A stretch of DNA of 64,000 nt from Spirochaetota bacterium (GCA_016934935.1 JAFGRW010000054.1:106668-170667), one strand, 5' to 3'; positions 15,196 through 18,664 are shown, counted from the first letter of the stretch. Notes: a model not told the origin generated them from the letters alone. Translations and numbers: made by a program.

Positions 15196-15432
15196 TTAGT
15201 ATTCGTATAAATTGGTAGACATTTTGTTGTTAACGATTTCACCGCTATCTTTTTTTATTTTTCTAACAAGTTTTTGTATCTTGTCTACCGTTTCATCTGT
15301 AAAGAGAACCTTTTTGCATCTTTCACATTGATACGCGGGAATATCTTCCAAAATAAATGTAAAATGGTCTTCTGATGTGCTATAGGAGCTTTTTCCGGGT
15401 ATTAAAACTCCTCCGCAGTGGCTGCAATTCAC
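15196..15432 (-). CDS. YgiT-type zinc finger protein
   Basis: CSHCGG...IPAYQCERC. True start is probably GTG 15432 after GGAG (78 aa); the ORF track extends it to 15549. Confidence 0.8.
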   Translation of the reverse strand: MNCSHCGGVLIPGKSSYSTSEDHFTFILEDIPAYQCERCKKVLFTDETVDKIQKLVRKIKKDSGEIVNNKMSTNLYEY

Positions 15433-15719
15433 AATTGTTCTCCATAATAAGAAAATAGTTCCTTGTATATTTATCAAGGAATTTGCTGCAAAACATAATT
15501 TTATAAAATAAAACTTTGAAATAGTTCTATTTATTGTAAATTTAAACAATTTTTAAGCCAGAATAGAGATATTTGATCTTCTTGTCACTCGAAAACGTAC
15601 ATAAATAACGATTTGAAGACAGTGTTACTTATGGCTTTATTCAAGTAATTGTCCGCAAGTTTCTGTTATGGGTGATCAACATAGGCAACCTTATCAATAA
15701 ATGTATTATTAAAAAATAC

Positions 15720-17099
15720 CTAAAAATAGATATCACCTGCGAAATAAATAAAATCTTTTTTGTGATGGCGTCCCATAAGACCTTCGTCATCCGAAAATTT
15801 ATGAAATATCCAGTATCCGGTTTTAATAACATACATATTTTCGGGCTTCAGACCCAATTCAAATTGTGAACCAAGATCGTTATCCTCCAGAGTATAAATA
15901 GAACAATTCATGATGTAGGCTTTTTTCTCGGCGAATTTTAACTGTATTTCACTTATAAACCGATTTCTATACTTTTTTTGATCCATTGTGTTTGAATGGT
16001 CAATTACAATATTTTGATTATATTCAAAATTTATCAAAAAAGTATTTCCAGGCCAGTCTTTCACGATCTCGAAGCCGGTAGTGTAGTCAAGTAGAGGGGA
16101 TTCCTCATATCCATTGCCGCCATCTGCAATGTCTGAAGCCATTTCTGAATCTTTAACAGCAAAAAATTTGCCTTTATTATAATATGCAAGCTCACCTTTG
16201 AGATTGATGTCCCAGATAAGGTTTGCCATAAAGTCCATTCCGCCCATGGTAACCTGTTTGTATTCGGCAGTTATCGCGGTTTGACCGGCATCATCTTTTA
16301 AAGTATAAGTAGGTGAATGATCATATCCGCGATAATACATAAGGTGTCCCTGGAAAGTCTGCAGATGTAATCCGGCACGAGCCCCGTAAGAAGCCTGACT
16401 CAATGATGCTTCGGGTTGTTCTTCACCGTAAAAAGCTCCATCAAGAACTTCGACAGCATTAAAAAAGTTAGCACTATTTTCGTGCATAAAGGCTGAAGAA
16501 AACTCATTGTCAGCTTCAAAAACAGGATTGATTAGACCGTCTACGGAGAAATAGCGTGAAAAGAAAAGTGTTGGATATATTGCGTAAATACCTTTTTTTC
16601 TTTTTATAGCATTATTCATAAGATGGAAAGAGTAATCTTGTGGATTAATAATGTCAACAGGATTGAAAAATTCCGTGTAACCCCATTTTGTGATGATTTT
16701 TCCCGCTCTGAGAGAAAAAGAGTCGAATACTGAAAGATGGAAATCCTGGTTAATAAAAGCTTCTCGAATGAAAATATCTTTCTGTTTTTTCTGATTTTCA
16801 GAATTAATGAAACTGCTATTAATCGAAGTATTCTCGGCATTATAGGCTGGACCAAATAGTGATCTTATTGCTGATGACCCCTGTGCGGTATCATAATCAG
16901 CCTGTATATCTACCACAACAGTTGTCTTGTTCATTGCTTTTTGAAAAACTAGGTTTGAATTTATGGCATTTCGACAGAATTCTGAATCAGATGAATTGAA
17001 TCCTGAATAAAATTCAAGCGAACCACGAAGTGGAACTTCGGCATGAAGAGTGAAAATGGTAAATAGAGCCAAAATAGCGAAGATGAGTAGTTTTTTCAT
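15720..17099 (-). CDS. Putative outer-membrane beta-barrel protein (DUF1302-like)
   Basis: Signal peptide; IREAF, LRAGK.I.KWG...FNPVDIINP motif; terminal aromatic beta-signal (AGDIYF). Confidence 0.7.
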   Translation of the reverse strand: MKKLLIFAILALFTIFTLHAEVPLRGSLEFYSGFNSSDSEFCRNAINSNLVFQKAMNKTTVVVDIQADYDTAQGSSAIRSLFGPAYNAENTSINSSFINSENQKKQKDIFIREAFINQDFHLSVFDSFSLRAGKIITKWGYTEFFNPVDIINPQDYSFHLMNNAIKRKKGIYAIYPTLFFSRYFSVDGLINPVFEADNEFSSAFMHENSANFFNAVEVLDGAFYGEEQPEASLSQASYGARAGLHLQTFQGHLMYYRGYDHSPTYTLKDDAGQTAITAEYKQVTMGGMDFMANLIWDINLKGELAYYNKGKFFAVKDSEMASDIADGGNGYEESPLLDYTTGFEIVKDWPGNTFLINFEYNQNIVIDHSNTMDQKKYRNRFISEIQLKFAEKKAYIMNCSIYTLEDNDLGSQFELGLKPENMYVIKTGYWIFHKFSDDEGLMGRHHKKDFIYFAGDIYF

Positions 17100-17118
17100 T
17101 GATTTAACCTTTTAAAAG

Positions 17119-17303
17119 CTGATATTAAGTAAAGAGTTAATCCTGTGACTATTTTCTTATTAAAAGATTGGTAACCGGTTAAATACTGAGAATTAACTGA
17201 ATTTATGGATTGTTTTGTGTTTATATGCAGAATACACAAACAATCGTCTCAGTTATGTGTAGTTGGTTACTCATAGTCATGGAATATACTCTTTTATTAT
17301 CGG
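17119..17303 (-). ncRNA. Candidate long rod-shaped structured RNA or 5' leader
   Basis: Six nested stems, including AAAGAGT/ACTCTTT, TGACTAT/ATAGTCA, GTAACC/GGTTAC, ACTGAGA/TCTCAGT and GATTGTTT/AAACAATC. Strand is inferred from the adjacent promoter. Confidence 0.5.
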
Positions 17304-17312
17304 AAATAGACA

Positions 17313-17340
17313 AAAATAACTGTAGAATTGCTCTTGTCAA
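17313..17340 (-). promoter_or_regulatory. Putative sigma70-type promoter firing into the rod structure
   Basis: Minus-strand TTGACA-N16-TATTTT; predicted start near 17305. Confidence 0.45.
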
Positions 17341-17569
17341 GATGCCTGTATGAATACATATAAACAATTAACACGGCTTTTCAATTTTTTATGTTAATTA
17401 GTAAATTGAAAAAAATACTGATTATTAGTTTACATGAAAAATCAGGATAATAATCATAGTGGTTGCAATATTTGCTTAATTTTATTAGTCTTTTTATAAG
17501 TAATTTATCAACCAGGTTGCATCTGTTAATTCAGAATGGCTGGAATATAATATGTTTAGGAGGAGTTAG

Positions 17570-18664
17570 GTGAAGTTATCTGTTTTTATTCATGATTATT
17601 TAAACGGTACAGTTCTTGAGCCGGTTACTAAGCTTGAATTGCTTGGGTATAATATTTTTAATCTTTTGCTTTTTGCAGTTGTTTTTATCGCTCTATTTTT
17701 CTTTTTTACAATATTAAGAAAAATTATTCTTATCAGAATTTCGGTAATATCCTCTAAGTCTGATTCTGTGTTTAGTAAAACAGTTGTGCAGATTATACGT
17801 GATATAAAATATCTTTTTTATGTAATATTAGCTCTCTACCTGTCTTCTCGAATGGTTGTGCTTGGTGAAAACTTTAACAATATAGTACGTATTTCGTTTG
17901 TTGTCATAATGATTTATGAGATAGTATTATTTGTACAAAATATTAGCATGTATGCTATTCAAAGCTATTGGGGGTCTGCTGACGCAGAAGAGAACGAAAA
18001 TGCGACAGCTGTTAATGCTATCTCCTTGATTACCAGAATCACTCTTTGGGTGGTTGGTGTAATAATTCTTTTGTCTAATCTCGGTATCGAGATATCCGCA
18101 CTTGTTGCATCTCTTGGGGTTTCGTCTATAGCCATTGCATTTGCTTTGCAAAGTATTTTGGCTGATATTTTCAGTTCATTTTCCATATATTTCGATCAGC
18201 CCTTTAAAGTTGGTGATTTTATAATTGTTGGAACCGATATGGGGGTTGTTAAAAAAATAGGGATTAAGACAACCAGGTTGCAAACATTGCAAGGGCAGCT
18301 GCTTGTAATTCCAAATCATGAGTTGACTAATACCCGTATAAACAATTATAAACAGATGGAATCACGACGTGTCGTGTTTGAAGTGGGAGTTGTTTACGGT
18401 ACTCCTGTGGAAAAATTAAGAAAGATTCCGCAATTCATAAAGGACATTATAGATGCGCAGGATTTAACGGATTTTGATCGCTCACATTTTAGCGCGATTG
18501 GAAGTCATAGCCTTAATTTTGAAACGGTCTATTATGTAAGAAGCAATGATTTCGCTATTTATCGTGATGTTCACCAAGCAATATGTTTGGGTATTTATGA
18601 AAAATTTGAAGCTGAGGGGCTGGATTTTGCTTTCCCAACTCAAACAATAATTATGGAGAAATAG
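17570..18664 (+). CDS. Small-conductance mechanosensitive channel (MscS family)
   Basis: ALVASLGVSSIAIAFALQ, DQPFKVGDFI, GIKTTRL and IPN..L motifs; multiple TM helices; AGGAGG RBS. Confidence 0.9.
   Translation: MKLSVFIHDYLNGTVLEPVTKLELLGYNIFNLLLFAVVFIALFFFFTILRKIILIRISVISSKSDSVFSKTVVQIIRDIKYLFYVILALYLSSRMVVLGENFNNIVRISFVVIMIYEIVLFVQNISMYAIQSYWGSADAEENENATAVNAISLITRITLWVVGVIILLSNLGIEISALVASLGVSSIAIAFALQSILADIFSSFSIYFDQPFKVGDFIIVGTDMGVVKKIGIKTTRLQTLQGQLLVIPNHELTNTRINNYKQMESRRVVFEVGVVYGTPVEKLRKIPQFIKDIIDAQDLTDFDRSHFSAIGSHSLNFETVYYVRSNDFAIYRDVHQAICLGIYEKFEAEGLDFAFPTQTIIMEK

Follow-up and report, generated by a model that had tools for sequence, protein, structure and literature searches.

Stem-loops in the 5' untranslated region (UTR) of E. 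coli ompA-type transcripts reportedly stabilise the mRNA, and 5'-end protection in E. coli needs hairpin ends that are nearly flush. Palindromic intergenic repeats are of a similar size to the element described here and share its long-hairpin shape; those of the ERIC, Correia and RUP types form multi-copy families with target-site duplications. Replication template switching is described by Monttinen & Loytynoja (PNAS 2022, PMC8794818) as giving rise to perfect hairpins in a single event.

Here we analysed a 185-nt imperfect palindrome (17119..17303, minus strand), hereafter the rod, which lies within a 470-nt intergenic region of a Spirochaetota genome. The window, that is, the whole stretch of DNA that was analysed, comprises 64,000 nt (contig C81:106668-170667), and coordinates refer to it unless a contig is named. 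The rod resembles the ompA-type stem-loops in that the mRNA of an outer-membrane protein would have a hairpin at, or close to, the 5' end of its leader, with the ribosome-binding site left free; it differs in its far greater length (185 nt) and its predicted 5' overhang of about 6 nt, and in being neither conserved nor under any visible selection. With the ERIC, Correia and RUP elements and with miniature inverted-repeat elements (MITEs) it has in common that it is an imperfect palindrome of 100-200 nt in an apparently transcribed intergenic region and folds into a long hairpin, but it is single-copy and has no detectable relatives. The reading that we favour on balance is a young, lineage-specific inverted duplication of the neighbouring barrel gene's leader, which would lie in the 5' UTR and be drifting.

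Structure and placement of the rod

A preliminary description of this DNA had proposed six co-linear stems, and RNAfold recovered all of them where they had been placed. In the plus-strand fold these are stem 1 (17119-24/17298-303), stem 2 (17132-37/17288-93), stem 3 (17141-43/17281-83 and 17145-52/17273-80), stem 4 (17170-81/17260-71), stem 5 (17185-91/17247-53) and stem 6 (17208-15/17238-45 and 17216-22/17230-36), accompanied by a 4-bp side hairpin in the promoter-distal arm (17155-58/17164-67). The proposed fold also stood up against dinucleotide shuffles on both strands. The minimum free energy of the minus strand was -38.8 kcal/mol versus -22.1 ± 3.25 for the shuffles (z -5.14) and that of the plus strand -49.0 kcal/mol versus -32.4 ± 3.5 (z -4.75), and none of the 200 shuffles folded as well on either strand. 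Strong folding of both strands is expected of a DNA palindrome. When folded together with its flanks (17080-17330, minus), the rod persisted (z -3.0). The internal loops of the minus-strand fold are asymmetric (11/8 and 1/16 nt), while the plus-strand fold contains a one-sided 16-nt bulge. Because its longest unbroken minus-strand helix is only 8 bp, the rod would make a poor RNase III substrate.

Read along the minus strand, the rod consists of a 5', promoter-proximal arm (17234..17303), a 13-nt apical loop (17221..17233) and a 3', promoter-distal arm (17119..17220) that carries extra insertions. The two arms adjoin across the loop and are reverse-complementary and collinear over the six stems; aligned to each other, they agree in 64 of 74 columns (13 gap events) or in 58 of 76 (7 gap events), depending on the gap costs. 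The rod structure is real. To place it within its genome, we divided the 936 ORF-free segments (150 nt or longer) into 6146 windows of 185 nt at step 40 and folded only the plus strand of each as RNA. With G+C regressed out, the rod stood at -2.47 SD. At least as good a fold was found for 132 of these windows, which belong to 62 loci, so the rod is clearly non-random yet not unique in the genome; comparably rod-like single hairpins made up seven windows.

Two further regions came up in this survey. On an 8-kb contig, two palindromes that are much stronger than the rod, each about 170 nt long, occur within an ORF-free stretch of some 970 nt (G000:C116:1949-2915, locus L034). One is at 2097-2263 (arm cores of 26 nt, 96% complementary), the other at 2620-2772 (41-nt arms, 83%), and they have the short motif TTACATAAT..ATTATC in common. 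Their 185-nt windows fold at -77 and -76 kcal/mol and are the two best GC-adjusted of the 6146 intergenic windows. An AT-rich rod of about 175 nt lies in another divergent intergenic region (G000:C7:39183-39360; locus L035, about 1183-1360); it folds at -45.5 (plus) and -31.5 (minus) and has no sequence similarity to the rod of the window.

The rod was also said to follow a minus-strand promoter and to end about 20 nt before the ATG of the barrel gene, and both statements proved accurate. A sigma-70-type promoter-like site (TTGACA-16-TATTTT, 10 of 12 consensus matches) is present on the minus strand at 17340..17313, and 19 nt separate the end of the rod from the ATG at 17099. Around the promoter-like site (17304-17345), two strain haplotypes of the species differ at 1 of 42 positions; its -10 element and the block downstream of it can be partly aligned with the sister species (G002), where the -35 hexamer is absent. 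The spacer between rod and start codon (17100..17118, minus) contains the Shine-Dalgarno region (AAAAGG), is identical between the haplotypes at all 19 positions and is conserved in the sister species. Lying between the promoter-like site and the Shine-Dalgarno region, the rod would therefore belong to the 5' leader of the barrel mRNA, if transcribed. We infer a transcription start near 17307, and if the promoter-like site is used, the rod would constitute almost the whole 5' UTR.

In a leader modelled from this start, the rod folded independently, with about 6 nt at the predicted 5' end left unpaired, and the Shine-Dalgarno bases did not pair with the rod; their partner, if any, was the downstream coding sequence. 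We therefore rejected an RNA thermometer or Shine-Dalgarno-sequestering leader, as the rod ends before the Shine-Dalgarno region and does not pair with it in the model. A 47-aa upstream ORF (17096..17239, minus), the stop of which overlaps the barrel ATG, was likewise discarded because a stop codon interrupts the frame in the variant haplotype. Both haplotypes keep open a shorter ORF of 19 codons within the 5' arm (MTMSNQ...), with two amino-acid changes, and this ORF was taken as chance. No terminator-like site was found in 16900-17700. The intergenic region contains a second hairpin at 17383-17442 (21-nt arms, 81% complementary), located between the divergent promoter-like sites and upstream of the gene on the far side; in the variant haplotype its loop carries a 4-nt insertion.

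The gene downstream of the rod, P0001 (15720..17099, minus), encodes a 459-aa outer-membrane beta-barrel protein that is distantly DUF1302/Wzi-like. The protein itself has no Pfam or NCBIfam match, and 162 cluster representatives match it at E <= 0.001. Among 50 aligned homologues, 38 match PF06980 (DUF1302) and 6 match Wzi. A confident AlphaFold2 model (pLDDT 91.1, pTM 0.87) shows a signal helix followed by an all-beta fold, and its best Foldseek matches in the PDB are porins and AlgE (TM 0.37-0.52). P0001 looks like a divergent, unannotated branch of the DUF1302 family. The divergent neighbour (17570..18664, plus) encodes an MscS-type mechanosensitive channel (Pfam PF00924, PF21088 and PF21082). 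On the other side of the barrel gene, between it and gltX, a 117-aa ORF (15196-15549, minus) has a match to the YgiT-type zinc finger TIGR03831 (E 1.3e-6) and a weak one to the MqsA antitoxin family.

Known RNA families, strand and copies elsewhere

One interpretation offered at the outset was a divergent 6S-like RNA, which the 185-nt length and the overall rod shape bring to mind. Like 6S RNA (RF00013), the rod is about 185 nt long and mostly double-stranded; unlike it, the rod lacks a model match, a central bubble and an independent transcription unit. An Rfam scan of 16000-18500 at E <= 10 gave six matches, all below their gathering scores and none of them to RF00013. The sole match on the rod was a mir-7-like hairpin with 24.7 bits against a gathering score of 51.8, in keeping with the earlier remark that the rod does not look like a known riboswitch. 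The only 6S match of the genome lies elsewhere (G000:C7:67383-67558, minus; RF00013, 72.7 bits against a gathering score of 46.4, E 2.9e-14). The loops of 11/8 and 1/16 nt take the place of a large symmetric central bubble, the Shine-Dalgarno region of a gene follows the rod immediately, with no terminator found, and it is not conserved even within the genus. We give the 6S interpretation practically no credence, and this part of the preliminary description has to be abandoned.

The preliminary description had left the strand unsettled, noting that G-U pairs form better on the plus strand. Indeed, the plus-strand fold contains eight G-U pairs and the minus-strand fold none. Together with its lower folding energy, this asymmetry would suit a functional plus-strand product, that is, a cis-antisense or small RNA overlapping the barrel-gene leader. 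Three of the eight G-U pairs belong to one slipped run, however, and the excess depends on the register chosen by RNAfold; arm alignments at the DNA level gave G-T:A-C counts of 2:0 or 4:2. The composition of the contig bears on the same point. The plus strand of C81 has a positive GC skew in 18 of 19 10-kb bins (up to +0.21), nearby intergenic DNA has 956 G versus 716 C on this strand, and plus-strand differences between the haplotypes are biased to C<->T over A<->G (60 versus 39 over 4.4 kb; 9 versus 2 in the rod). These figures suggest a strong replication-strand mutational bias on C81. Given the C<->T bias and the contig-wide excess of G over C, a mutational explanation for the G-U asymmetry is available, and it would account for at least part of it.

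We consequently no longer take the 8-to-0 asymmetry as proof of a plus-strand RNA, weakened as it is by its dependence on register and by the strand bias that extends over the contig. Upstream of the rod, a promoter-like site occurs on the minus strand only; the two on the plus strand (17368 and 17429) lie downstream of the rod; a terminator-like site is missing from 16900-17700 for this product as well, and 6 of 13 haplotype differences in the rod break plus-strand pairs. A functional plus-strand RNA is accordingly very improbable in our estimate. The asymmetry also touches the duplication itself, in that mutational strand bias explains the G-U excess only partly, which counts against a plain inverted copy.

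Another possibility is that the rod is the relic of a miniature mobile element, a MITE-like or ERIC-like palindromic repeat, that was inserted into the leader. Its size and long-hairpin shape are those of palindromic intergenic repeats, its ends are inverted repeats (CTGATATTAA.../...TTATTATCGG), and it is missing from the sister species. A genome search, nhmmer, sensitive blastn and a covariance model (R1, based on both available haplotypes) nevertheless found the rod to be single-copy in its own genome (G000, 89% complete, 138 contigs). Blastn returned no match longer than 41 nt in 60 relatives (only matches of 25-41 nt) and, across 121 further genomes of the order, only one of 30 nt (G056); R1 had no match in 40 relatives, and plasmid and phage collections contained no match to the rod.

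The one candidate for a second copy came from a lenient blastn search, which matched an intergenic region of contig C68 at 66.7% identity over 114 nt (E 0.004), with a local score of 34 compared with 18.8 ± 3.0 for shuffles. This would favour a mobile element, but nhmmer missed the site, only about 25 nt of it are convincing and no rod forms there (z -1.1 and -0.3), and we rejected it; blastn statistics are probably over-optimistic for AT-rich DNA. The flanks of the rod (...TTTTAAAAG / rod / AAATAGACA...) show no clean direct repeat and thus no visible target-site duplication. Moreover, the leader of the sister species aligns inside the 5' arm and apex of the rod, which a foreign insertion would not show. 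We consider a mobile-element origin improbable.

The sister locus and the origin of the rod

The locus is syntenic in G002, a species of the same genus, with a barrel gene 73% identical and an MscS gene 66% identical to those of the window. The intergenic region measures 342 nt there and 470 nt here, and in G002 about 70 nt separate the conserved promoter-proximal block from the ATG. In a standard alignment only the first ~22 nt upstream of the ATG were common to both species. A gap-tolerant alignment matched the promoter-proximal block (AAGAG..TTCTA.AGTT.TTTTT...TTCCGAT) in addition to the Shine-Dalgarno block; in it, the 52-nt leader of G002 aligned collinearly with the 5' arm and apex of the rod, and the whole 3' arm fell into a gap. 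The match reached a z of 2.5-2.8, and 0.2-1.0% of 500 mononucleotide shuffles of this AT-rich sequence attained its score, a moderate significance obtained with one outgroup; the reverse-complement control gave a z of 1.1-1.5. That the alignment which polarises the event is only moderately significant counts against the duplication reading.

The equivalent region of G002 is not a rod (fold z -2.4 and -2.1). An apparent analogue, with a 15-bp AT-only closing helix, was rejected since this helix spans the promoter-aligned block and the fold is weak (z -2.4). In the next relative (G006), the barrel gene has an 85-nt spacing and an upstream neighbour other than the MscS gene, and for the latter reason this spacing says little as a second outgroup. 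The simplest history would be that a short ancestral leader gained an inverted self-copy in the lineage of the present species. Alternatively, the ancestor may have had the rod and G002 have lost it, a course of events for which the different upstream neighbour in G006 leaves room.

From this alignment we infer that the 5' arm is probably the ancestral leader sequence and that the 3' arm, which has no counterpart in G002, is its inverted copy. According to our working model, the ancestral leader was short, about 70 nt as in the sister species. A reverse-complement copy of its promoter-proximal part would have been laid down just 3' of the source in the lineage of this species, possibly by replication template switching or fold-back priming. 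The initial product would have been an almost perfect hairpin, some 90 bp long and closed by a 13-nt loop, and its decay by substitutions and small indels would have left the six stems separated by bulges. The mRNA would now carry the rod at its 5' end, where it would fold independently, with the ribosome-binding site outside; its effect would be neutral, or would amount to no more than a mild stabilisation of that end which is not under selection.

The arms diverge by 14-24% in aligned columns, compared with 7-8% between the haplotypes. This would fit a duplication that somewhat predates the haplotype split and took place long after the lineage had separated from G002. The rod resembles the template-switch hairpins of PMC8794818 in that a reverse-complement copy lies beside its source, a long hairpin would have arisen in one step, and the structure is lineage-specific and absent from the orthologous site of a sister. 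It differs from them in its long (~70-100 nt) and already decayed arms with 7-13 indel events, and in that the event here is deduced from one outgroup and no tree reconstruction. The position between promoter and ribosome-binding site is a further point against the duplication reading, as it would also be expected of a functional leader.

Haplotype variation and possible function

The variant haplotype stems from a metagenome contig (L030) with 99% amino-acid identity. Contigs of two sequencing runs (X3 and X5) carry the same differences in the rod as L030, and at least 4 of them were seen in a third (X4). Nothing in the one metatranscriptome of the same study (X15) mapped to this DNA, a result with no bearing on transcription either way. 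The rod is identical to that of L030 at 172 of 185 positions (93.0%), with 13 differences (7.0%) and no indels, while the coding sequences of the barrel and MscS genes are each 97.5% identical. At fourfold-degenerate sites, 14 of 171 positions (8.2%) differ in the barrel gene and 10 of 138 (7.2%) in the MscS gene. The divergence of the rod matches these values, which implies that it evolves at the neutral rate. Two observations speak against simple drift: the rod is free of indels, compared with 15 gap columns in the rest of the intergenic region, and it diverges less than this remainder, which is 86.9% identical. The most variable intergenic part is 17346-17569, where many substitutions and all 15 gap columns occur, mostly at A/T runs.

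When the 13 changes were mapped onto the minus-strand fold, 4 kept their pair as G-U, 5 broke a pair and 4 were unpaired; on the plus-strand fold the counts were 5, 6 and 2. The variant haplotype still folds well (-33.1 minus, -47.0 plus). When 13 substitutions were simulated at random, with the transition/transversion mix kept, a fraction of 0.25, 0.51, 0.09 and 0.11 (four tests) nevertheless folded at least as stably as the variant. The RNAalifold consensus of these near-identical haplotypes, with their 13 differences, contains one double change (columns 64/94), and among 400 random simulations, 33% (minus) and 29% (plus) contained at least one such change. Polarising the substitutions by their pairing partner was dropped as circular because the structure had been derived from one of the two compared sequences. 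Selection for pairing was thus not detectable in comparisons whose power is low; given only 13 substitutions and three haplotypes of one species, weak selection may still operate.

Taken together, a conserved cis-regulatory RNA at the rod is not supported: the rod is absent from the syntenic locus of the same genus, changes at the rate of synonymous sites and shows no excess of structure-preserving change. The preliminary description had regarded it as a possible cis-regulatory leader, and its placement downstream of a promoter-like site and ahead of the barrel gene's Shine-Dalgarno region agrees with a leader, while the regulatory role finds no comparative support. A decayed inverted duplication, which the same description had named as the contrary outcome, fits the data, including the lack of excess compensatory change.

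The rod could nevertheless be a functional minus-strand 5'-UTR element, newly born and already selected, which protects the transcript from 5'-end-dependent decay or serves as a processing or protein-binding site. This would agree with its exact placement between the promoter-like site, around which the haplotypes hardly differ, and the Shine-Dalgarno region, and with its independent folding in the modelled leader, where few 5' nucleotides are unpaired and the Shine-Dalgarno region lies outside. The lack of indels, the lower divergence than in the rest of the intergenic region and the persistence of the rod in the variant haplotype point in the same direction, and mRNA-stabilising 5'-terminal stem-loops are established. 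Yet the substitution rate is that of fourfold sites, 5 of the 13 changes break minus-strand pairs with no excess compensation, and the rod is missing from the syntenic leader of the sister species. In addition, the overhang of about 6 nt, calculated from the predicted start, exceeds the near-flush ends that are needed in E. coli, and no unbroken minus-strand helix is longer than 8 bp. We think such an element unlikely, though worth keeping in mind; a mild ompA-like stabilising effect on the mRNA would be possible but is unsupported.

That the rod acts at the DNA level, for instance as a palindrome prone to cruciform extrusion or as a large operator shared by the divergent genes, seems hardly probable to us. 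A palindrome in a divergent intergenic region invites this thought, as do the other long palindromes in long ORF-free regions of contigs C116 and C7. The 7-13 indel events in the arms disfavour cruciform extrusion, however; the rod lies downstream of the likely promoter and not over it, and it drifts at a neutral rate without conservation in the sister species. We retain the young inverted duplication as our preferred reading.

For genome scans, these findings carry a caution, as a fold z near -5, a tidy position between a promoter and a ribosome-binding site and the lack of an Rfam match can mimic a new riboswitch, while the same data are here better explained by a recent inverted duplication drifting at the neutral rate. 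It is unlikely, and slightly more so than a functional leader in general, that the rod is a structured leader soon after its birth, lengthened from about 70 to 185 nt by one inverted duplication and already altering the stability or processing of the mRNA in this species. If true, it would be a natural example of the de novo origin of a cis-acting RNA structure, and the same process may have acted at the other long rods, on contigs C116 and C7. If this minority reading is right, the locus would offer a small, tractable case of a structured mRNA leader arising in one mutational step.
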